Position numbers and translations under genes: made by a program
Shown here: positions 3 through 13,590 of the stretch, in pieces
Numbering within the stretch: the first letter of the stretch is position 1
Layout: each line of letters opens with the position of its first letter
DNA from: Trichormus sp. ATA11-4-KO1
GTDB lineage: Bacteria; Cyanobacteriota; Cyanobacteriia; Cyanobacteriales; Nostocaceae
DNA length: 14,412 nt
Direction: 5' to 3'
NCBI GenBank assembly: GCA_019358915.1
Contig: JAHHIM010000063.1
Coordinates: 1 to 14,412, forward strand
The notes under the pieces: model-generated
What the model was told of the DNA's origin: nothing
Seen by the model: the letters and a program-made list of their open reading frames with translations, nothing else
Databases searched by the model: none

Positions 3-1385
3 CCACCAATAGAATTAAATTACATTTCAAAAAGTAATCGCCAAGTTCGTACAAGCCATACTCCAGATTTTTTTGTAATCGAAGTCAACTGGGTAGGATG
101 GGAAGAATTTAAACCAATTAGTGAATTAATCAAAAAAGCACAACAACAACCAAACCGCTACGTCCAAAATGAAGCAGGAAATTGGCTTTGTCCACCTGGA
201 GAAGAATATGCTCAAAAATACGGACTTAACTATCGGCTGAGGACAGATATCGAACAAAATGTAATTCGGTTGAGAAATTATCAATGGTTGGAGCCATATT
301 TTCAAGACGAAGAGTTAGATAAAAATCAGAGTAATAATCAAAGAATAGTATCTATAGTCAAAGGGAGTCCTGGAATAACTTGTAGTGAATTGCTATTAGC
401 CATAACTGTAATTAGCCCTGATGAAATCAATAGTTTAATTGCCCAAGAAAAGTTGTTTATCAATTTTAATACTGCCCCATTAGCCGAACCCGACCTTGTT
501 CATATTTTCCCCACATTAGAACAAGCCGAATTTTATGAGAAAGAAGAATTATCAGGTCTAACGAAAGATACCTCAAGTCAGGGCAACAAAGAAGTTCAAC
601 AACTACTGCTCAAAGCACGTTCTGAAGATTTAGAAACCGCTAATGCTCGATATGAAGCCATAAAGCCATACTTAGAAGAAAATTCTCCACCTATTACCAA
701 AGCCAGTCGCAGTATTCGTCGTTGGCGTCAACAATATCAGCAAGCACAAAAGCTATATGGAGAAAATCATGGTTATGTAGGCTTACTCCCTAAACATTTA
801 GATAAAGGGCATCATCAAAAACTAGAACCAGCACTCTTAGATTTTATGGCAGAATTCATTAAAAAACATTACTTTACTGCCAAAAATAGACGAGTGAGTG
901 GAGTTTATCGGGAATTTCAATTAGCCTGTAGTCAACAAGAACCTGTTTTTAAACCCCCCTCAGAAAAAACATTTCGTGAACAGATTAAAAAACAAAAAAA
1001 TTACCAACTCACTCTAGCCCGCCAAGGCTCAAAAATAGCTAAACAAACTAAACCATTTCACTCAAACAGTGAAATACCCAAAGACGGAGAGTTACCCTGG
1101 GAAAATGCTCATATTGACCACACTTGCTTAGATATTAACCTAGTGAGTTCCTTAATTTCTCTAGCAACTTGCAATATTAGTAGTGCTATTGACAGCGAAA
1201 AAATGAGCTTAGGTCGCTGTTGGGCAACTTTTCTAGTAGATGGTTATAGTAAAAGAATTTTAGCAGTGTATCTTTCCTTTGAGCCACCCAGTTACCGTAG
1301 TTGTTTAATGGTAATTCGGATTTGTGTCAAAAGATTTAGTCGATTACCTCTTTACGCCAACGCAAAAAACATAAAGGTCAGGTGA
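3..1385 (+). pseudogene. TnsA-like endonuclease fused to TnsB/Mu-like DDE transposase; 5' end outside the window, internally deleted
   Basis: The frame of ORF 270..1385 is open back to position 3 (PPIELNYISKSNRQVRTSHTPDFFVIEVNWVGWEEFK...CPPGEEYA), giving a TnsA-type TPDF...ExK PD-(D/E)xK motif. It is followed by HTH-like segments (RSIRRWRQQY...GLLP; PPSEKTF) and the start of an integrase core (AHIDHT...GRCWATFLVDGYSKRILAVYLSFEPPSYRS...RFSRLP). Similarity stops at about 1350, before the second Asp and the Glu of the DDE triad. Confidence 0.8.
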
Positions 1386-1984: not shown

Positions 1985-2887
1985 ATGGCAAAAACAATTG
2001 AATTTAGCGCAACTTCGTTTCCTTCTATCGTGCTGCGAGAAGACTTGACTCATACCTGGAACGATATTGGCATCTCTCAACTTTCAAATGCTGAACAAGT
2101 TGCTTTGCTGGATTTTCTCGAACACCTTGGGACAGAGTTATTGCGGGATTTCGACGTTGAGCGAGTGCTGTTGGTAAAAGCAGCTAATGGTGTCCCTCAA
2201 GGTGTGTATGGCCCGGCTATCTTTCGGGATGATGATTCTATAGTCCTGAAGCTGGGAGCTAATCTCTTTGGGGTTCAACAGATGGGCGATCGCCTGATAC
2301 TGGGAAACTTAAAAGGCAAAGTCACGGTGACGGAGGAGAAAGATACCGCCGGAGTAACCTATCCTAAAGCTTTCTGCTCTTTTGTTGCTCCCTCTAGAGA
2401 TGTCTTTAAAATTAATATCTCACTAGCAACAAAGGAATTAAACCTCACATCGGCAGACCTGAATGCAACCTTAATTAACGAAGAATCCCTACTCCCCTTC
2501 TTACGTCAAGTTCCCTGTGGCTCTTGCATGAAAATGCAGGAATTGGGCTTGGGCGAATTCCAGGTTCAAGGTATCACGGAAAGTGAGGGAGAGTACGGCA
2601 CAAGTTACAAACTGCACCTTGCTGATGGTCGGTCTGTATGGGCTAGGGGTAACGCTGCGTTACTACTAGATTCTGGCTGGCGACCTGCTCCTGGGGAAGC
2701 TCTGTGTCTGGTGATTTCTCATATTGAGGAAACGGGAGATAAGTACAGTGTAGATTGCGCTTTAAGATTGCGGCTTCCTAGCTTACCTAATCAAAGTAGC
2801 AGCAATCATCACTATCACAATACAGCGATCACTGTAGAAGCTTCACCTGTAATCAACAACGAACTAGAAGACAATATACCCTTTTAG
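1985..2887 (+). CDS. Hypothetical beta-rich protein with SSB-like acidic C-terminal tail; putative ssDNA-binding protein
   Basis: 300-aa ORF ending in a low-complexity linker and ELEDNIPF (compare the SSB C-terminus DDDIPF). An OB-fold-like strand pattern is present (GEFQVQGITESEGEYGTSYKLHLADGRSVWARGN). Confidence 0.6.
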   Translation: MAKTIEFSATSFPSIVLREDLTHTWNDIGISQLSNAEQVALLDFLEHLGTELLRDFDVERVLLVKAANGVPQGVYGPAIFRDDDSIVLKLGANLFGVQQMGDRLILGNLKGKVTVTEEKDTAGVTYPKAFCSFVAPSRDVFKINISLATKELNLTSADLNATLINEESLLPFLRQVPCGSCMKMQELGLGEFQVQGITESEGEYGTSYKLHLADGRSVWARGNAALLLDSGWRPAPGEALCLVISHIEETGDKYSVDCALRLRLPSLPNQSSSNHHYHNTAITVEASPVINNELEDNIPF

Positions 2888-3210: not shown

Positions 3211-4344
3211 ATGACACAAGTAATAACCTCCCCCAAATTACCCGAAACTTCATCCAGTTTACTAAATGTTGCTACTGTCAGAAACCATGACCTGAGAACC
3301 TTAAATAAAACCAAGGTGCGATTCAAAATTAGCTTGAAAAATGCCACCAAGAAAAAAGCACCATCCTGGCATCAGGTACTTTCTGGTAAAAGTTTCTTCC
3401 AAGCAGATTCTACTGTTACTACTGACCAAAATACACAATACCTGGAATCAGACCTCGAAAAAGTTACACGCAGTGAAGTAGGTTTGCGTGGTATTCCAGT
3501 ATTCAGAGCTTTAGAAGATGCTGCTGCGGTTTTGCGAACAGAAATTGAATCTGTCAAAGAATGGACTACCCCAGATGGCTCTGTCATGGTTTGTGCTATT
3601 GAATTGGCGCAAATTGTGTGGACTCAACTGCTACGTATTCGTGACGAACTAGCTCCAGCACTTCGCACTGAATTACATACAAAATACGAGCAAGGATTAG
3701 CAGAATATACTGGGCGACTTGATAAGTTCCTTCAGTTACAAGCATGGAGTTTAAGTGCTGAAGATTATGAATTAGCACGCAACGAAATGCTGTCAGCTTA
3801 TCCATCCAAAGAAGAAATTGATGATTATCTTCAAGTTAACATTGCTAGACCGGAAATAGTTAAACCACTAGCAACGCAACTATCAGAAGAACAGGCTCGT
3901 ATTTTAGGAGAAATTAATCGTTATATCGAGCAGTACGACCAAAATCTGGAAAGAAGTTTAGCAACAGCAGCAATCTCATCTGGTGAGCAACTAGCTGGAG
4001 AACTGATTGAGGCATTAGCAGCATGGGAACCGGGAAGAAAGCCAGTGCGGTTTCGCAAGTTCATTGAAAAACAACTTAAGAAAGCAAGAGTATTACTGCT
4101 CAATGCTGATAACAGTGCTGTGCCTTCATTAACTGTCTTAATGAACAATATTGAACAGATAGTTGAGGACACGAATATCTCAGCAAAAGAGCAAGTATCA
4201 AGACGGTCAGAACTGGAAAATAAAATTGCTGAAATTTCAGCTTCGATGCTGCTAGAACAACAAAAACTGAGAGAAATTGCAATTGCTGAAAGTTCCCTAG
4301 ATGACCGTTCTGATTGGGTAGTATTCGCCGCATCTGAAGATTAG
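3211..4344 (+). CDS. Helical/coiled-coil hypothetical protein, DUF3150-like
   Basis: 377-aa amphipathic helical ORF. The segment LLRIRDEL...LHTKYEQGLAEY...SAYPSKEEIDDYLQV recalls DUF3150. C-terminus is LDDRSDWVVFAASED. Confidence 0.55.
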   Translation: MTQVITSPKLPETSSSLLNVATVRNHDLRTLNKTKVRFKISLKNATKKKAPSWHQVLSGKSFFQADSTVTTDQNTQYLESDLEKVTRSEVGLRGIPVFRALEDAAAVLRTEIESVKEWTTPDGSVMVCAIELAQIVWTQLLRIRDELAPALRTELHTKYEQGLAEYTGRLDKFLQLQAWSLSAEDYELARNEMLSAYPSKEEIDDYLQVNIARPEIVKPLATQLSEEQARILGEINRYIEQYDQNLERSLATAAISSGEQLAGELIEALAAWEPGRKPVRFRKFIEKQLKKARVLLLNADNSAVPSLTVLMNNIEQIVEDTNISAKEQVSRRSELENKIAEISASMLLEQQKLREIAIAESSLDDRSDWVVFAASED

Positions 4345-4432
4345 GGATTGGGTATTGGGTATTGAGTATGAGGAAGAGATTTCGCCAGTCCATAGTTATT
4401 CTCCCTCATCTCCCCAGTCCCTAGTCCCCAGT
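4344..4432. repeat. STRR heptamer repeats arranged as the arms of an imperfect inverted repeat
   Basis: GGGATTG-GGTATTG-GGTATTG (4344-4364) and CCCCAGT-CCCTAGT-CCCCAGT (4412-4432). CCCCA(A/G)T is the STRR1-type repeat of heterocystous cyanobacteria. Confidence 0.8.
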
Positions 4433-4490
4433 CTAGGGAGTAAAAACAACATAACGAATAAATCACCAAATGTAAGGATGGAAATAATTT

Positions 4491-4997
4491 ATGAGCCATT
4501 TTTCGAGCATAAAAACAACACTAATAGACAAGCAAGCTCTTGTCGAAGGACTAAAGTCACTATTGGCATATCATCAGATAGATATTCCAGTTGAAATCTA
4601 TGAATCTCCAATGCAACTATTCAATGATTACGACAGGCTGAATACAGATGAGGCAGAAATCATCATCCGTCGCACTTACTTAAAGACTCGCAATCGTGAT
4701 GCTTTAGTTGATGTTGGATTTGCCAAAAATTCAACATCAAATGCCTACGAAATTAAAGTAGATGCTTGGGATTTCAACCAAAATCTATTGGGTAGGGTCT
4801 TTGGCAATGTGCGAAATTTCCAAGAAGAAGTGCAACTTGCTCATAACCAAGCTTACATCAACATCCACTATCCTCCAGAAATTTGGGATTACCAACAATC
4901 CACTCTCGATGATGGCAGCTTACAAACAACTCTTACTAAGAAAGTAAGTTTAACTGTCTCAAATTCAAATAGCAACGATTGGAACAATTGGCAGTAA
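4491..4997 (+). CDS. DUF1257 (Ycf35-like) protein
   Basis: Diagnostic N-terminus MSHFSSIKTTLIDKQALVEGLKSL; also AEIIIRR, DVGF....AYEIKVDAWD and DDGSLQTTL. Confidence 0.85.
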   Translation: MSHFSSIKTTLIDKQALVEGLKSLLAYHQIDIPVEIYESPMQLFNDYDRLNTDEAEIIIRRTYLKTRNRDALVDVGFAKNSTSNAYEIKVDAWDFNQNLLGRVFGNVRNFQEEVQLAHNQAYINIHYPPEIWDYQQSTLDDGSLQTTLTKKVSLTVSNSNSNDWNNWQ

Positions 4998-5009
4998 TAG
5001 GAGTGAAAA

Positions 5010-5207
5010 ATGTCACAAACTCAAATTATTATCAAACAGAAAAAGGGGCAACCTTTACAGGTAGAAGTGGTAGGTGTACCTGACTCTAGTTGCCGAAACC
5101 TCACAGAACCTTTAGAAGCACTCGGACAAGTTGACGTGACACCAAAACCACAGATGTACGTTGAACCTACAATCACCACATTCTCAACCGTTGAAATCGA
5201 AGGGTAA
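5010..5207 (+). CDS. DUF2997 protein
   Basis: 65 aa with VEVVGVPDSSCRNLTEPLEALG...KPQMY. An AGGAG RBS lies upstream, and the gene is adjacent to DUF1257 and the AAA ATPase as is usual for this family. Confidence 0.85.
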   Translation: MSQTQIIIKQKKGQPLQVEVVGVPDSSCRNLTEPLEALGQVDVTPKPQMYVEPTITTFSTVEIEG

Positions 5208-5212
5208 GTAGA

Positions 5213-5254
5213 AGCTAAGAGGAAGCGACTACCTAAGAACGCTTCCTCTTAGCT
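5213..5254 (+). other. Perfect 15-bp intergenic stem-loop without U-tract
   Basis: AGCTAAGAGGAAGCG-12 nt-CGCTTCCTCTTAGCT. Confidence 0.7.
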
Positions 5255-5283
5255 CAATGATGTTTTGAAACCAAACCAAATAT

Positions 5284-6963
5284 ATGACATTTAACACACA
5301 AGAAGTCATCACTTCGTTTCACGCTGGTTGTGCCACAGTTGCAATCAATTCTCCGACAGCCAGCGAAATCAACATCACTAATCAGCTAATTGTTGATATT
5401 GCTCTCCGGCTTGGTATGGAAAGTTACATTTGGGATATAGCTAAGTCTTTGCAGAAAGTAGAACCAAAAATGCGTTCTGGCAAAGTTACGGGACTTCCTA
5501 AAACACCAGCTCCTAATTTTGATACCAAGGGACATCCTATAGAAACACTCCTGAAACACATTGAGGCTGAGTGTGCTAACAACACAACTGTCCGAAAACT
5601 TTTCATCCTCAAAGATATCTACCCTTTTATTACTGGAATCAACCCCAATCCAGTATTTGTGCGTCTTGCGATCGATACTTTCAATGCAGCCAAGCGTAGC
5701 TCCCATCGGCTGGTTATCCTGCATGACAATTTGAGGACACCCAAAGTCTTTCAAGACTTGATTGCAGATATGCACAATCCTAACCCCACACAGCAGGAAA
5801 CGGAACACATATTTGACACACGAGTAGAAGCATTGAGAAAAAGTGCGATCGCTCAAGGTGCAGAACTGCCCATAGACATTAGTCCATCAGATAAGAAACG
5901 CCTCATCCGCGCTTTGCAGGGGATGTCTTATGAAGCAATAGAAGATGCCATTTCTCTATGTGCCACATCCTTAAGAAAGGTTGATGTCGGGGCCATTGAA
6001 TTTCTGTCCAAACACAAGCAAAAGAAATTCGCCGCTAAGGGCATTAGGTATGCAGAATCTCCTGATGTGGCTGTACAAGGATTGCCAGCAGTTACAGAAT
6101 GGGCAGAAACGATGGCTGCACTACTAGAACCAGAGGCTCAAGAGAAATATAACATCCCCTTTCCTTCTGGGGCGTTGTGGGTTGGTGTGGGAGGTACTGG
6201 TAAGACTTTGTGCGTCAAAACCATTTCGCAACTTTGGGGTTTGCCTAGTTTAATTATGGACACTGGCAGTTTGATGAGTCGAGAACTGGGTGCAAGTGAA
6301 GAACGATTGCGGGAATACATTCAAGCCGCAGAAGACCTTGCACCTAGTATTCTGTTCATTGATGAGTTTGACAAGCTCATGCCGGGCGGGAACGCCGTAG
6401 AATCTGACAGTGGTACAAGTGCGAGAATGTTTGGCTATTTCCTCACATGGTTTGAGGAAAAGAAAAGTAGTGTATTTGTAGCAGCAACCTGCAATAGACC
6501 TTGGGGAATTAAAGACGAAACTCTCAGGCGATTCACCAAAATATTCTATGTTGATTTGCCGAATTTGTCAGCCAGAAAAGATATCTGGAATGTACAGCTA
6601 AATTACTGCAAAGTTGCAATTAAGAAACCTGAAATTGAGAGATTAGCTGCTGTGAGCGCGGATTATACGGGTGCAGAAATTAGGAAGATAGTTCAACAAT
6701 GCGCTAGTTACTCCTATGCCAAAACCCGAAAAGTCAATGTGTCTGTTGAAGACTTGTTAGAGGAACTTCATAGGACTCCGGCACAATTTAAAGCTAATAC
6801 CAGAGAGCTGGAAGAACTGCGAAAATGGGCGCGTTCTGGTGGCGCAACATGGGCTGCACCTGAAACCGAAGCTTGCGAGAGAAGTCGCGATCGCTCTGTC
6901 ACCTTTCATTCAACCAGTGAAAATTTGCACAGCGACATCATCGATTTTTCTGATTTCAACTAA
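5284..6963 (+). CDS. Ycf46-like AAA+ ATPase
   Basis: Degenerate N-terminal AAA-like domain (LFILKDIYPF), Walker A GVGGTGKT, Walker B ILFIDEFDK, SDSGTSARMFGYFLTW, sensor-1 VFVAATCN, LRRF...FYVDLP, YTGAEI lid and LRKWA tail. Confidence 0.9.
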   Translation: MTFNTQEVITSFHAGCATVAINSPTASEINITNQLIVDIALRLGMESYIWDIAKSLQKVEPKMRSGKVTGLPKTPAPNFDTKGHPIETLLKHIEAECANNTTVRKLFILKDIYPFITGINPNPVFVRLAIDTFNAAKRSSHRLVILHDNLRTPKVFQDLIADMHNPNPTQQETEHIFDTRVEALRKSAIAQGAELPIDISPSDKKRLIRALQGMSYEAIEDAISLCATSLRKVDVGAIEFLSKHKQKKFAAKGIRYAESPDVAVQGLPAVTEWAETMAALLEPEAQEKYNIPFPSGALWVGVGGTGKTLCVKTISQLWGLPSLIMDTGSLMSRELGASEERLREYIQAAEDLAPSILFIDEFDKLMPGGNAVESDSGTSARMFGYFLTWFEEKKSSVFVAATCNRPWGIKDETLRRFTKIFYVDLPNLSARKDIWNVQLNYCKVAIKKPEIERLAAVSADYTGAEIRKIVQQCASYSYAKTRKVNVSVEDLLEELHRTPAQFKANTRELEELRKWARSGGATWAAPETEACERSRDRSVTFHSTSENLHSDIIDFSDFN

Positions 6964-6973
6964 GTGATTATAC

Positions 6974-7006
6974 CCCGCTCAACATCCGACGAAAGGATTG
7001 AGCGGG
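6974..7006 (+). other. Intergenic stem-loop
   Basis: CCCGCTCAA(ca)TCC-gacgaaa-GGATTGAGCGGG, with no U-tract. Confidence 0.6.
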
Positions 7007-7031
7007 AAACAACTTTATTAGGTGTTTAATT

Positions 7032-7829
7032 ATGGCAGATAAAACTCAAGCACTCAAAGTCCAAAAACTCATCTGTGTCCGCCCTGGAACAAACAATAAT
7101 AAATATTGGTGCGCTTATGTAATGCCCAATGGGGAATTACTGGTAGAGTACGGACGGGTAGGAAATACACCCCGAACTCATGTTTATGCTTGCGGTTCTA
7201 GCAATGCAGCTAATAACAAGCTAGCCACTTTAGTTTGGGAAAAAACTACTCAAAAAGGCTACACTTTTGCAACAGTAGATACTGACACGAATCCTCAGCT
7301 TGATTGGAGTCAATTTCCAGTTGATGCAGTAAATCAACTCCAACAAAAATTATCTCAAATTCAAGCTATAGGAGATAAAATTTCCAGAGATACGCTGATT
7401 AAATTTGACTGCGTTCACGGCTTGTTTATCACTGATTTAGGAGCTATAAATCAATCCACAATCAATAGAGCTACTCTGGCATTAAACGCAGTTGAAAGAA
7501 GCTATAACCAGGATAATAGCAGCTTTAATGATGCTGTAGGTGATTATCTGCGTTGTATCCCGTTACCAGTTGGCAGAAAACTAGATGCTAGAGCAATACT
7601 GGGAACAAGACAATTGATTACTCAGCAGCGACAAATCCTGTCTTTACTACAAAATGGATTAGAAGCAATAGAGAGTTTACGCTTGGAAATGCTCTCCATA
7701 CAAACGCAGTCTTCATCAGATTTATTAAATGACCGTTCTTGGTGGGTAAGGTGGGGAATTGACTCAGTAAGTCCATCATTATCCACCGAAAACTTAGACA
7801 ATCGTTCTTACTATGTCCAATTTCATTAA
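7032..7829 (+). CDS. WGR-domain protein with PARP-regulatory-like helical domain and no ADP-ribosyltransferase domain
   Basis: NNNKYW...LLVEYGRVG...EKTTQKGY is a WGR domain. TDLGAINQSTINRATLALNAVE...YLRCIPLPVGRKL...QQRQILSLL follows the PARP_reg pattern (PLG.LS...I..A...L / Y..IP...G). The ORF ends about 55 aa later. Confidence 0.8.
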   Translation: MADKTQALKVQKLICVRPGTNNNKYWCAYVMPNGELLVEYGRVGNTPRTHVYACGSSNAANNKLATLVWEKTTQKGYTFATVDTDTNPQLDWSQFPVDAVNQLQQKLSQIQAIGDKISRDTLIKFDCVHGLFITDLGAINQSTINRATLALNAVERSYNQDNSSFNDAVGDYLRCIPLPVGRKLDARAILGTRQLITQQRQILSLLQNGLEAIESLRLEMLSIQTQSSSDLLNDRSWWVRWGIDSVSPSLSTENLDNRSYYVQFH

Positions 7830-9535: not shown

Positions 9536-9916
9536 CTACGATTTTCGCTTGAACCTAAATGTCATAGCTCCTTTACCTCCAGCTTTACCACCAATCCCAA
9601 ATAGGCTGATTTGTCCTTCTCCATTTATTTCCACTGATACCTCGACTTCATCAAGCTGTATCTTAGAATCAGGTTGGTCAGCTTCATCAAGCATTTCCCG
9701 CATTGCTTGTAAAAACCCTTGCATTTCCTGCTTTAGCTTGCCTACCTCAATGGCTTTTCGTCTGGTAATCACTACTTCTGTAGTTTCAGTGATTTCCGCG
9801 CCAAGTCGTCCTCCAATATCACTGCTGCTTCTTGCGCCTGTAGTAGTTGTAGTTGCAGCTTCAGTTTCTTCGGTAATAATCCAAATTGTTTCTGGAGTAG
9901 AAATTCCTGCTGACAT
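9536..9916 (-). CDS. Pepco-like (peptidase-companion, Trypco-related) domain protein
   Basis: LKQEMQGFL...IQLDEVEVSVEINGEGQISLFGIGGKAGGKGAMTFRFKR is the typical pattern of these peptidase-associated beta-hairpin domains. The gene lies next to a caspase gene. Confidence 0.75.
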   Translation of the reverse strand: MSAGISTPETIWIITEETEAATTTTTGARSSSDIGGRLGAEITETTEVVITRRKAIEVGKLKQEMQGFLQAMREMLDEADQPDSKIQLDEVEVSVEINGEGQISLFGIGGKAGGKGAMTFRFKRKS

Positions 9917-10178: not shown

Positions 10179-12176
10179 ATGGCTAAGAATTGGGCGATCG
10201 CGATCGGCATTAATAACTACAACAATCTTCAGGCACTAAACTTTGCTAAACAAGATGCTGAGGTAATGGGAGCTTGGTTCACAGATGAAGCTAAGTTTCA
10301 TAAAGTTTTTTTATTTACTGAAGACTCTCCTTCCATCCCAGCCAATCCACCAATACCAACTCAACCTACATACGGTAATGTACGACGTTTTTTACGAGTA
10401 AACTTTGAAAAACCACTGTTGGAACCTGGAGATAATCTCTGGTTTTTCTTTGCTGGTCATGGTTGTCGTGAAGGAGACCGAGACCATCTCATGCTTTTGG
10501 ATAGTGATCCAGGAGATGTAGAACATACAGCAATTCCTGTAGATTTTGTTACCCAAAGACTGCGCCGCAGTGGAGCTGATAACGTAGTACTATTTTTAGA
10601 TGCCTGCCGAAATGAGGATAGTAGAAGTGGTTTAGGAATTGGAAGGGAACATCCAGGGGTTGTTACCTTTTACTCTTGCAGTCCGAAAGAGAAAGCCTAC
10701 GAAATCGAACACTTACAGCAAGGATCATTCACTCATGTATTGCTACAGGCATTGCGAATTCAAGGAGAAGGTAACTGTGCCACCGTTGAGCGACTTTACC
10801 AACACTTGCGTTATCAGGTTCCAGAATTAAATATTCGCTACAAAAAGCCTAGACAAACTCCGTATACTGTTGCTGAACCTGCGACGAAGTTGCATTTAAT
10901 TCTGCTGCCTCAGCAAGCAACTCTAACAGATATAACTACCCTAAAAAACAATGCCTTAGAAGCTGAGGCAGAGAAAAACTTAGAGTTAGCTGAACAACTT
11001 TGGATTAGAGTTTTAGCAGTTTCACCAGCAGATCGTCAGGCTATTAAAGCGATTAAACGTCTAGCATTAGGATTAGCTTCTAATTCGGAACCTTCAGTTA
11101 CAAGTCAATCAACAGTAGATACTGTATCCGATTCCAGCAGGGATGCAGGAGATTATAAACGCATATCAGAGCAGAAATTAATTGAATTTAAAAGTAGTGA
11201 GAATAAACATAAACAGGAGCGCCTTAAATTTGAACTAGAAAGTCAGATTCTGGAAGCAGAATATCAAGGATTTTTGAGTGCGTTTCAACAACAAGATAAT
11301 GTTTCTCCCGCCGAAAAAACAGCACCATTATCCACAAATCCAGTCTTAGACTTTGAAGTAGTAACAGTTGATGTTCGAGGCAATGAGAGTAGCAGATATA
11401 AAGGACAAGCCCAATATTTCATTGAAGACCTTGGCAATGGGGTGATGTTAGAAATGGTATACATTCCTGGGGGAAAGTTTTTGATGGGTGCGCCGGAAAG
11501 TGAGGAAAGGCGACTTCCAAATGAAGCACCACAACACTTAGTGAATATCAAACCATTTCTTATAAGCAAATACCCAGTAACTCAGGCACAGTGGAAAGTT
11601 ATTGCCTCTTTTCCTAAAGTGCATCAAATTCTTGAAACAGACCCTTCACATTTTAAAGGTGAAAATCTTCCTGTTGAACAAGTTTCTTGGCATGATGCAG
11701 TTGAGTATTGTAGTCGCCTTGCCAATAAAACGGGACGTGAATATCGGCTACCAACAGAAGCTGAATGGGAATATGCCTGTCGTGCTGGAACCACAACCCC
11801 ATTTCACTTTGGAGAAACCATAACTCCCCAGTTGGCAAATTATGACTGCAACTTTAGCTATCGATCTCGCCTCAAAGGAAGCTCTAGAAATCAAACAACT
11901 CCAGTTGGTTATTTTTCCTTTGCTAATCCGTTCGGACTGTTTGATATGCACGGAAATGTCTGCGAGTGGTGCTTAGACGATTGGCATGAAAGTTACAATG
12001 ATGCACCCACAAATGGTAGTGCTTGGTTAATGGAAAGCAAGAATGATTTGCGGGTATTACGGGGTGGTTCTTGGTTTCATGATCCGAGAGACTGTCGGTC
12101 AGCTTTTCGTCACAAACGAGATTCCAACGACAAACTCAACCGCAATGGTTTTCGTATTGTCTGTGCGCTTACGTAA
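10179..12176 (+). CDS. Caspase-family (Peptidase C14, orthocaspase-type) protein fused to FGE-sulfatase/CLec-fold domain
   Basis: NWAIAIGINNY; FFFAGHG (His at 10458-10460); FLDACR (Cys at 10605-10607); a TPR-like helix pair and linker; then IPGGKFLMG, YPVTQAQW, LPVEQVSW, RLPTEAEWEYACRAG, NPFGLFDMHGNVCEW, RGGSW and GFRIV. Confidence 0.93.
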   Translation: MAKNWAIAIGINNYNNLQALNFAKQDAEVMGAWFTDEAKFHKVFLFTEDSPSIPANPPIPTQPTYGNVRRFLRVNFEKPLLEPGDNLWFFFAGHGCREGDRDHLMLLDSDPGDVEHTAIPVDFVTQRLRRSGADNVVLFLDACRNEDSRSGLGIGREHPGVVTFYSCSPKEKAYEIEHLQQGSFTHVLLQALRIQGEGNCATVERLYQHLRYQVPELNIRYKKPRQTPYTVAEPATKLHLILLPQQATLTDITTLKNNALEAEAEKNLELAEQLWIRVLAVSPADRQAIKAIKRLALGLASNSEPSVTSQSTVDTVSDSSRDAGDYKRISEQKLIEFKSSENKHKQERLKFELESQILEAEYQGFLSAFQQQDNVSPAEKTAPLSTNPVLDFEVVTVDVRGNESSRYKGQAQYFIEDLGNGVMLEMVYIPGGKFLMGAPESEERRLPNEAPQHLVNIKPFLISKYPVTQAQWKVIASFPKVHQILETDPSHFKGENLPVEQVSWHDAVEYCSRLANKTGREYRLPTEAEWEYACRAGTTTPFHFGETITPQLANYDCNFSYRSRLKGSSRNQTTPVGYFSFANPFGLFDMHGNVCEWCLDDWHESYNDAPTNGSAWLMESKNDLRVLRGGSWFHDPRDCRSAFRHKRDSNDKLNRNGFRIVCALT

Positions 12177-12198: not shown

Positions 12199-13590
12199 TT
12201 ACTCGTCTTCTTCGTCAAAATCGTCCTCGTCCCATGAGGGTGTATAAGTTGATTCTAGAGGTTGAGCTTCACCACTTTCTATAGCTAAAGTTTTACGATA
12301 CTGTTCTGCTTCAGCAATCTTTGTAAATTTAATCTCAGCCTTGTTTACATTTCTTGTGTCTTCAGCAATATTAGCTAATGCCGATGCGATTTCATCTAAA
12401 GAAACTTTAAAAAATTCTTTACGCTCATTTACTTTATTGACACTCTTATCTATAAAATATTGGTGTAGTAAATTTTCTGTTTCTGGTGCATTTTCAGAAA
12501 AAATAATTGCATGAACATCAAAGGGAAAAGGAACTGCTGCCCCACTTAGTTCTCTGACACGCTCATAGGGATCAAGCCGCCGTGTCATGCCAATTTTATA
12601 GATATTCTCGCCAAAAGAACCAATGTTTGAAATGACATATATATGTCCCGATTTTGTCATTTGAGCGCGAGATATTGCTCTTTGTTCATTAGCACGAGCT
12701 TCTTCAAGCTGTTGCATTAAATGTTGTATCTTCAGTTCTAATTTCTGTTTTTGCTTACCTACAACTTGTTCAACTTCTTTGCGAGCTTGTTCTAATGCCT
12801 GTTCACGGCGTTTGACTTCTTTTTCAGCATCTTCCTTTGCTTTTTCTATTTCTCGTAAAGCTCGTTGTTCTTCACGCATTTGCTCTTGTATTCTTCTTTG
12901 TTCTTCTCTTTCTTCCTGTTTCTTTTCTTGAAATTCATGTGTAAGATATAGTTCTTGTAGCTTTAAATTAAGATATTCACGAGTAATTTCACAGCGATTT
13001 ACTTCTGACAATTTATTTAAAACTTCAAAAGTCTTATTAATTCTTTTTTCTAAAGATTGAACATTATCATATTTGACCTTAGTCACAGCAACGTCACACT
13101 CACCATTAAAAGCTCTTAGTAAGAGTTTGAGAAAGTCATTTGTCATTTTTTCGCCTTTTTTCTTGCTGCCTTCTACTTCCCACGGCACATGGCATATAGC
13201 AGCTGTATGACTTTTGATCATGACCTTTTGTCTTTCTCTAATATGGTTAAGCCTAAGCTTATATTCCTCAGAGTTGTCAAAGTTATATTTCGCTTTATAG
13301 AATCCGAATGATCGAATATACTCAGATTCTTCTACCTCACGTAATTTCTGTTGGAGTTTTCTAATTTGAAACCTGAGTTCTTCTTCTGTTTTTGCTAACT
13401 TATCAATTTCACTTTGTTTTGATTTGATACTTAAGTTTAATTGCTTTTCAAAATCTTCTTTATTAATAAGCCCGTCATATTTATGCAATCGCTTTTTTAA
13501 TTTAGATTCTTCAATCTTTCCCTGTATAAATACAACCAGTAATGTTACTATTACTATTAAAAAGACTATAGTTAATATAAAATTAGACAT
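12199..13590 (-). CDS. TM-DUF4041-GIY-YIG (T5orf172/MUG113) nuclease; SNIPE/PD-lambda-1-like anti-phage protein
   Basis: N-terminal TM helix and coiled coil; DUF4041 (FGFY...RQKVMIK...LLLRAFNGECD...YLNLKLQELYL..E...KKQEEREEQRRIQEQMREE); GHIYVISNIGSFGENIYKIGMTRRLDP.ERVREL...VPFPFDVHA...RKEFF. Confidence 0.88.
   Translation of the reverse strand: MSNFILTIVFLIVIVTLLVVFIQGKIEESKLKKRLHKYDGLINKEDFEKQLNLSIKSKQSEIDKLAKTEEELRFQIRKLQQKLREVEESEYIRSFGFYKAKYNFDNSEEYKLRLNHIRERQKVMIKSHTAAICHVPWEVEGSKKKGEKMTNDFLKLLLRAFNGECDVAVTKVKYDNVQSLEKRINKTFEVLNKLSEVNRCEITREYLNLKLQELYLTHEFQEKKQEEREEQRRIQEQMREEQRALREIEKAKEDAEKEVKRREQALEQARKEVEQVVGKQKQKLELKIQHLMQQLEEARANEQRAISRAQMTKSGHIYVISNIGSFGENIYKIGMTRRLDPYERVRELSGAAVPFPFDVHAIIFSENAPETENLLHQYFIDKSVNKVNERKEFFKVSLDEIASALANIAEDTRNVNKAEIKFTKIAEAEQYRKTLAIESGEAQPLESTYTPSWDEDDFDEEDE

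Follow-up and report, generated by a model that had tools for sequence, protein, structure and literature searches.

The window analysed here is the entire 14.4-kb contig JAHHIM010000063.1 (14,412 nt) from the 5.97-Mb genome of the cyanobacterium Trichormus sp. ATA11-4-KO1. Its plus strand encodes, in this order, a 377-residue helical protein, a DUF1257-like protein, a DUF2997-like protein, a Ycf46-like AAA+ ATPase and a protein with a WGR domain. We show that a short motif in the flexible C-terminal stretches of the helical protein, the ATPase and the WGR protein (where it occurs twice) is under selection as a protein sequence, and that this tail travels with the ATPase/DUF1257/DUF2997 core rather than with the gene that bears it. 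The peptide is probably a docking motif, tuned to the module's lineage, that is predicted to bind the ATPase of this plasmid-borne module.

A C-terminal motif conserved as protein

The motif comes in two spacings. The core of the long form, found once on the helical protein and twice on the WGR protein, reads [DENT]-R-S-x-[WYC]-[VM]-x-[WF], and the short form on the ATPase tail reads [DE]-R-x-[VI]-x-[WF]. The module was also found at a metagenome locus (L101) and on plasmid pLBX of Leptolyngbya boryana, which serve for comparison below. The features of the window's module, all on the plus strand, are as follows.

3211..4344, plus: helical protein, 377 residues; open reading frame (ORF) with no Pfam match, DUF3150-like by indirect links only
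4303..4326, plus: long form of the tail motif, DRSDWVVF, on the helical protein; identical in L101 and on L. boryana pLBX
4491..4997, plus: DUF1257/Ycf35-like protein, 168 residues, starting MSHF and free of the motif; assigned by homology to an L. boryana protein
5010..5207, plus: DUF2997-like protein, 65 residues, free of the motif; PF11211 match below cut-off, assigned by homology
5284..6963, plus: Ycf46-like AAA+ ATPase, 559 residues, with a degenerate D1, an intact D2 and a disordered tail (residues 529-559)
5764..5883, plus: ATPase residues 161-200, first lid helix of D1; candidate docking surface suggested by charge covariation
6604..6723, plus: ATPase residues 441-480, lid helices of D2; a weaker region of putatively opposite charge, also suggested by covariation
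6889..6906, plus: short form of the tail motif, DRSVTF, on the ATPase
7032..7829, plus: WGR domain followed by helices like those of the PARP regulatory domain, with two motif copies at the end
7731..7754, plus: motif copy 1 of the WGR protein, DRSWWVRW; ERSFWMNW in L. boryana
7800..7823, plus: motif copy 2 of the WGR protein, NRSYYVQF; TRSDCVLW in L. boryana

An initial annotation, made from the sequence alone, had placed the peptides LDDRSDWVVF (4297-4326), LNDRSWWVRW (7725-7754) and LDNRSYYVQF (7794-7823) on the helical and WGR proteins, and all three are found there. It had the helical protein ending at the motif, but five further residues follow (FAASED). In the six-frame translation of the host genome (19,989 ORFs of at least 60 residues), the pattern L[DN][DN]RS.[WY] has three matches in 2.84 million residues, all in this operon. 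The pattern was fitted after the fact to its own matches, and hence the tests on orthologues carry the weight.

At L101, where the ATPase is 57% identical to that of the window, the helical protein terminates in GLDRSDWVVFNPQH, with DRQVSW on the ATPase. On pLBX, where the ATPase is 45% identical, the corresponding sequences are EGIDRSDWVVFGE and DRTVVW, and the two copies on the WGR protein end 23 and 1 residues before the C-terminus versus 24 and 1 in the window. Overall, the distance from motif to C-terminus ranges from 1 to 24 residues. Between the three lineages, the codons of the orthologous octapeptides have changed at 4 to 6 third positions and the amino acids at none, so selection acts at the protein level. 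Orthologues from two cyanobacterial orders keep the motif in their tails. Over their last 20 residues, the three tagged proteins have a net charge of -1 to -5 in the window and -5 to -6 in L. boryana. The consensus L-[DN]-[DN]-R-S-x-[WY]-V-x-[FW], originally proposed, turned out to be too narrow: its R-S-x-aromatic core stands, but the L-[DN] prefix is replaced in relatives by GLDRS, GIDRS, LTERS, QTERS or SDTRS.

The ATPase copy deserves separate treatment, as SRDRSVTF (6883-6906) had been regarded as possibly incidental. All 30 ATPase relatives among the matches listed at E 1e-100 or better (42-97% identical; best 8,000 candidates scored, tails judged by eye) carry the motif, 20 of them in the short form [DE]-R-x-[VI]-x-[WF] and 10 in a long form, D-R-x-x-A-V-E-F, which has the spacing of the partner proteins. 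The two spacings therefore appear to be interchangeable, and DRSVTF is a genuine member of the family. The same cannot be said of a second suggested ATPase echo, STSENLHSDIIDF (STSENL), which is replaced by STSENSHSDIIDF in close relatives and absent from distant ones.

The similarity could also be a repeat at the DNA level, left by recent copying, a recombination site or the HIP1 element, with no function of the peptide. We confirmed that positions 4301-4320 and 7729-7748 are identical at 17 of 20 nucleotides. The sharing of codons at D, R, S and V between these two copies has a chance of about 0.006 under the genome's codon usage (a calculation made after the fact), and the ATPase copy overlaps a HIP1 site in 4 of the 5 lineages compared. 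The shared codons may thus record copying within the window. Both tails are, however, already present on pLBX, and local copying may explain the 17 of 20 but not the conservation. The HIP1 overlap says little, because HIP1 writes 965 of the 1,224 [RSG]DR tripeptides in long ORFs of the host genome anyway, and because variants with E-R break HIP1 and keep the motif; HIP1 was rejected as its cause. A search of a viral contig collection with the back-translated octapeptide gave a single match, in an unrelated phage region. A mere DNA repeat is thus largely refuted and we give it very little credence.

Tails and the ATPase core

The window holds the complete module, namely a Ycf46-like AAA+ ATPase with adjacent DUF1257 and DUF2997 genes, the latter two recognised by homology. 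In the window's family, 142 of 389 genomes contain relatives of the helical protein. Such relatives also lie on 37 plasmids, which are all from Nostocales and of which 19 are typed as conjugative. Most of these relatives belong to a sister module with the same gene order (for example on pCC7120alpha), which we call the Nostoc type. The window-type module occurs in five family genomes at 95% identity or higher, the window's own included, and outside the family at L101 and on pLBX, a plasmid typed as non-mobilizable. In a phylum-wide sample of 401 genomes, which missed the L. boryana plasmid, the helical family was found in 10 genomes, all of the window's family, and the window-type ATPase in three. 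The DUF2997 family was detected in 232 of 371 genomes, mostly in chromosomal copies. No ATPase relatives were found in the viral contig collection, and PADLOC returned only generic ATPase matches for the module and no specific defence system. The host genome itself contains a window-type module, a Nostoc-type module and a chromosomal Ycf46, with three differing ATPase tails. Its Nostoc-type helical gene (contig C28, L016 10640-11608) stops at 322 residues, short of the tail.

Comparison of the gene bodies separates the helical protein from the rest of the module. The ATPase, DUF1257, DUF2997 and WGR proteins are 45, 43, 46 and 33% identical to their pLBX counterparts, versus 26-27, 28-32, 35-39 and 26-27% for the Nostoc type. 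For the helical protein the order is reversed: it is 45-47% identical over about 350 residues to Nostoc-type proteins with basic tails, whereas its pLBX counterpart gives only a local match of 102 residues (26%, E 0.016) and ends with the same octapeptide, DRSDWVVF. The family profile recognises the pLBX protein with E 2e-29. For a tree of 23 helical proteins, the last 22 residues were cut off. Here, the proteins of the window and L101 stand beside P0009, which has a Nostoc-type tail, in a 99/99 group with the four rows of the Nostoc type. The approximately unbiased (AU) test rejects a clade that unites the three helical proteins with the motif (p 5e-8). In the ATPase tree (21 rows, last 45 residues removed), on the other hand, all nine ATPases with the motif fall into a single branch (100/99 as drawn). 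Hence, at least one gene body has been exchanged while the tail of the module was kept or re-imposed.

The Nostoc-type module has tails of its own on the same three proteins, with R/K-x3-F and R/K-x5-F spacings and basic flanks: L-R-T-S-R-F on the ATPase, K-A-T-V-M-S-F on the helical protein and K-T-I-S-K-N-F on the WGR protein. The net charge of the last 20 residues is +2 to +4 in one Nostoc-type module versus -1 to -6 in the window type. Further afield, the ATPase and a neighbour end alike on plasmids of Paenarthrobacter (GGRRIDF/GGRTLDL), Bacillus cereus (GGRTIDF/SGRMIDF) and Comamonas (PRRQVLG/RRRNILI). In mycobacteriophage Corndog (gp96/gp95, L182 3920-6509), which belongs to a cultured cluster of phages, a related ATPase ends KVRVLDL and the next gene has two similar stretches, GRAIDF and GYALDF. 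What this lineage has is one version of a tail that is present in the same module on other plasmids and phages. The idea of an operon-specific address code thus survives in part: the tail follows the ATPase core and not the gene body, but it is not unique to this operon.

We looked for further tagged proteins with patterns built from the module's own tails. Outside the operon, the host genome (6,064 ORFs) gave 2 tail matches versus 1.83 expected, which is background, and pLBX (537 ORFs) gave one weak match versus 0.17 expected. In the window operon, the code links three proteins.

Type IV secretion signals at the C-terminus are often basic, with a net positive charge. As the module resides on plasmids, 19 of 37 of them typed as conjugative, and the Nostoc-type tails are basic, the tail might be such a signal for conjugative transfer. 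We regard this as highly improbable. The window-type tails are acidic (-1 to -6) rather than net positive, pLBX is typed as non-mobilizable, the tag follows the ATPase and, on three plasmids, is limited to the module, and related ATPases with tails of the Arg-hydrophobic kind occur in phages.

Candidate receptors

In the structural model (predicted local distance difference test score, pLDDT, 84.6), the ATPase consists of two AAA domains that start from residue 1, without an N-domain, and its best structural matches are Rix7, Cdc48 and p97, in keeping with a fold like Cdc48 D1-D2. Only residues 298-424 match PF00004. Walker A, Walker B, sensor 1 and the arginine fingers are present in D2, and D1 is degenerate. 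The tail (residues 529-559) is disordered and undocked in the monomer model (pLDDT below 50). The protein is 30% identical over 417 residues to the host's chromosomal Ycf46, which ends QRMEF, and matches phrog_8638 with E 2e-76. Its top NCBIfam match, CdvC, is weak and far below cut-off, and neither Pfam, nor the model, nor the structural matches show an MIT domain. A Nostoc-type ATPase of 890 residues (L022 11235-13907, G162) has Hint-domain matches and thus likely contains an intein.

Charge was used to look for the receptor of the tails. In 12 modules, D1 carries a charge of +1 to +4 with acidic tails and -9 to -13 with basic ones, D2 stays at -1 to -8 whatever the tail charge, and DUF1257 goes the wrong way, with an acidic charge of -7 to -11 alongside acidic tails. 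A broader comparison used 101 distinct ATPases in 21 clusters at 50% identity (ORFs of 440-680 residues, profile E 1e-40 or better, near-full coverage required, with failing rows dropped and not counted). Tail charge correlated with D1 charge at rho -0.58 (p 0.005), and independent contrasts gave r -0.68 (p 0.0008). The values for the large domain and the lid of D2 were +0.31 and -0.64, respectively. The signal peaked at residues 161-190, where rho was -0.71 (permutation p 0.007, family-wise); none of the 49 control segments was as strong. The D1 beta-hairpin (residues 50-85), another candidate docking site, was not supported (rho -0.23). The covariation hints that the ATPase rather than DUF1257 is the receptor, and points with moderate strength to the outer rim of the hexamer, at the lid helices.

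Several observations weigh against a docking motif read by the ATPase. DUF2997 changes sign in a similar manner (-1 to +3 in the window type, -7 to -9 in the Nostoc type) and is still a candidate. The charge idea was formed on part of the same data; in 12 held-out clusters the whole of D1 gives rho -0.43 (p 0.16), and at 40% identity (13 clusters) rho is -0.52 (p 0.07). Some clusters include ATPases whose DUF1257 and DUF2997 neighbours are unverified. The AU test on the helical proteins loses weight through the long branch of the pLBX row. Substrate threading is uncertain, as the pore loop of D2, E-L-G, has no aromatic residue. The WGR gene is not a fixed part of the module, as L101 has another gene in its place, and no tagged protein was found outside the module on plasmids G306:C3 (138 ORFs) and G417:C5 (204 ORFs).

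The strongest competitor, to which we assign a limited chance, places the site on the DUF1257/DUF2997 pair, a scaffold into which the ATPase, the helical protein and the WGR protein would all plug. These two are the only members of the module without the tag and are fused in one module, and a site on another protein would more easily account for the copy that the ATPase itself bears. The DUF1257 model has a TBP/helix-grip-like fold, a class that includes the peptide-binding adaptin appendages (only Z 4-5), and the charge of DUF2997 differs between the two types as described above. However, DUF1257 is acidic together with acidic tails, DUF2997 charge does not track tail charge in the other five modules scored, and the lid regions of the ATPase itself do covary.

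The assignments of these proteins are themselves indirect. The window's DUF1257-like protein has no direct Pfam match but is 43% identical to an L. boryana protein above the PF06868 cut-off, versus 28-32% to Nostoc-type DUF1257 proteins; its TBP/helix-grip-like model has no clear structural match (best VIA Z 6.1, weak; best Foldseek E 0.2). The DUF2997-like protein matches PF11211 below cut-off (E 0.0098) and is 46% identical to an L. boryana protein that passes it. A natural fusion of the two on plasmid F of Nostoc sp. C052 (L126 4068-4634) suggests that the pair works as a heterodimer. Some Nostoc-type modules (L020 4393-5283, L114, L067) have two different DUF1257 paralogues in tandem. For the DUF3150 label originally given to the helical protein there are indirect links only: neither this protein nor 17 representatives match the DUF3150 profile (PF11348), but the distant relative C052F matches DUF3150 below cut-off (E 0.015), and the Atlas places the window's protein in a cluster with 14% DUF3150 members (score 0.94).

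The tail might instead be a degron or a pore-engagement tag that makes the three proteins short-lived substrates of the ATPase or of a host protease. It is unstructured, lies near the C-terminus and has a hydrophobic end, and the ATPase belongs to an unfoldase clade. Its distance to the C-terminus, on the other hand, varies from 1 to 24 residues, the ATPase itself is tagged and the D2 pore loop lacks an aromatic residue. The match between tail and module lineage argues against a host protease. Taken together, a degradation tag appears improbable.

Proposed mechanism, known systems and neighbouring genes

In the favoured scheme, a single site would bind both the conserved Arg and the aromatic residue that closes the motif, and the flanking charge would set specificity. 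The site most likely lies on the outer rim of the ATPase hexamer, at the lid helices of D1 and D2. The ATPase's own short copy could occupy this site until the copy of a partner displaces it. The WGR protein, which corresponds to the DNA-end-sensing half of a PARP, might, through its two copies, recruit the motor to plasmid DNA that is nicked or broken, for remodelling or removal of the protein bound there. The differing tails and their flanking charges would keep co-resident modules apart.

The WGR protein (265 residues) matches the WGR domain with E 1e-7 and PARP_reg below cut-off (E 0.002). It is 31% identical over 217 residues to a full cyanobacterial PARP of 420 residues (L019), the alignment covering residues 8-210 of 265 and ending where the catalytic domain would start. 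PF00644, the catalytic family, matches only the full PARP. The WGR protein is thus a PARP in which the catalytic domain is replaced by about 50 residues holding two motifs. It shares the WGR domain and the regulatory helices with bacterial PARPs, but has two putative docking motifs where they have the catalytic domain. The WGR domains of PARP1 and PARP2 bind DNA breaks, and by analogy the window's protein may do so too. A locus on plasmid G306:C3 (L017 7703-9670) has two tandem WGR genes, 94-96% identical to that of the window, with both motifs on each. At L101 (6260-9773) the ATPase gene is followed, instead of by a WGR gene, by a DUF6166 gene and by genes that resemble those of a primase-polymerase and of PRTRC-type proteins. 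On pLBX (L125 7174-10911) an RRXRR-domain gene lies between the helical and DUF1257 genes, and a gene of the Ycf34 family separates the ATPase gene from the WGR gene. A divergent O-acetyl-ADP-ribose deacetylase gene upstream of that module is of note near a PARP-derived gene.

Among known systems, Vps4 with its MIT domain and the MIM motifs of ESCRT-III combine long helical partners bearing short tails with an AAA+ ATPase of the same broad clade. The window's helical protein, with its short end tail, likewise adjoins an AAA+ ATPase, but one with two AAA domains and no MIT domain. The module was not found mentioned, for the terms searched, in an ESCRT survey (PMC11188069). The VIM, VBM and SHP motifs of p97/Cdc48 cofactors are short, contain Arg and, although their proteins are unrelated, compete for a single site on a two-ring AAA+ motor (PMC5389986). 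The tails resemble them in being short Arg motifs on unrelated proteins beside a two-ring AAA+ motor. In contrast to p97/Cdc48, the window's ATPase lacks the N-domain that holds the VIM/VBM/SHP site (it may have lost, or may never have had, this means of docking), its D1 is degenerate and the motor itself is tagged. The operon has no ubiquitin gene, and the tails do not, judged by eye, fit the VIM, VBM and SHP consensus as given in the same paper.

The closest relative is the Ycf46 (slr0374)/Ycf35 (DUF1257)/DUF2997 set of cyanobacteria and plastids, which comprises the same three families. The window module differs in being plasmid-borne, in adding the helical protein and the truncated PARP, in having an ATPase of a separate lineage and in bearing the acidic D-R-S-aromatic tail on three proteins. 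PMC7496141 presents the Synechocystis operon as induced by stress and without a known function, and mentions a reported link to the activity of carbonic anhydrase; in PMC13060386, ycf35 is called functionally uncharacterised. We found no description of these tails in the literature searched, which did not extend to subscription journals or bioRxiv supplements.

Conservation of Ycf46, Ycf35 and DUF2997, which have no known mechanism, extends from cyanobacteria to plastids of the red lineage, and the three are met again on plasmids and in phages. A tag of six to eight residues with two oppositely charged natural versions, and a gene whose tag changed along with its module, make the machine directly testable. 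The tails also offer a way to find clients and suggest how DNA-end sensing of the PARP type might lead to AAA+ remodelling with neither ADP-ribosylation nor ubiquitin involved. On a more speculative note, the module could be a ubiquitin-free bacterial segregase similar to Cdc48, with a re-programmable C-terminal Arg-aromatic tag read on the outer lid surface of a hexamer without an N-domain, co-evolving charges of tag and surface, a PARP that has traded catalysis for tags, and insulation between the host Ycf46 and the plasmid modules. We hold this only tentatively and think it rather unlikely as a whole. If it were true, the same site would give a functional handle on the orphan plastid gene ycf46.

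The window also contains coding regions outside the operon. Just upstream of it, at 1985-2887 (plus strand), a 300-residue protein has the acidic end ELEDNIPF (DDDDIGF in relatives), a tail like the C-terminal docking motif of SSB. It has no Pfam, PHROG or NCBIfam match and, in the Atlas, only weak phage clusters. Possibly, it is a single-stranded DNA-binding protein with a second kind of docking tail. At 3-1385 (plus strand) lies an open-ended Tn7-like transposase with a weak match to the TnsA N-terminus, 35% identity to a copy on contig C28 and an apparent early stop. A Pepco-domain protein (9536-9916, minus strand) and a caspase/FGE-sulfatase fusion (10179-12176, plus strand) are encoded divergently. 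A protein with DUF4041 and T5orf172/GIY-YIG domains (12199-13590, minus strand) strongly matches PD-Lambda-1, an anti-phage gene, in PADLOC (E 1e-159).

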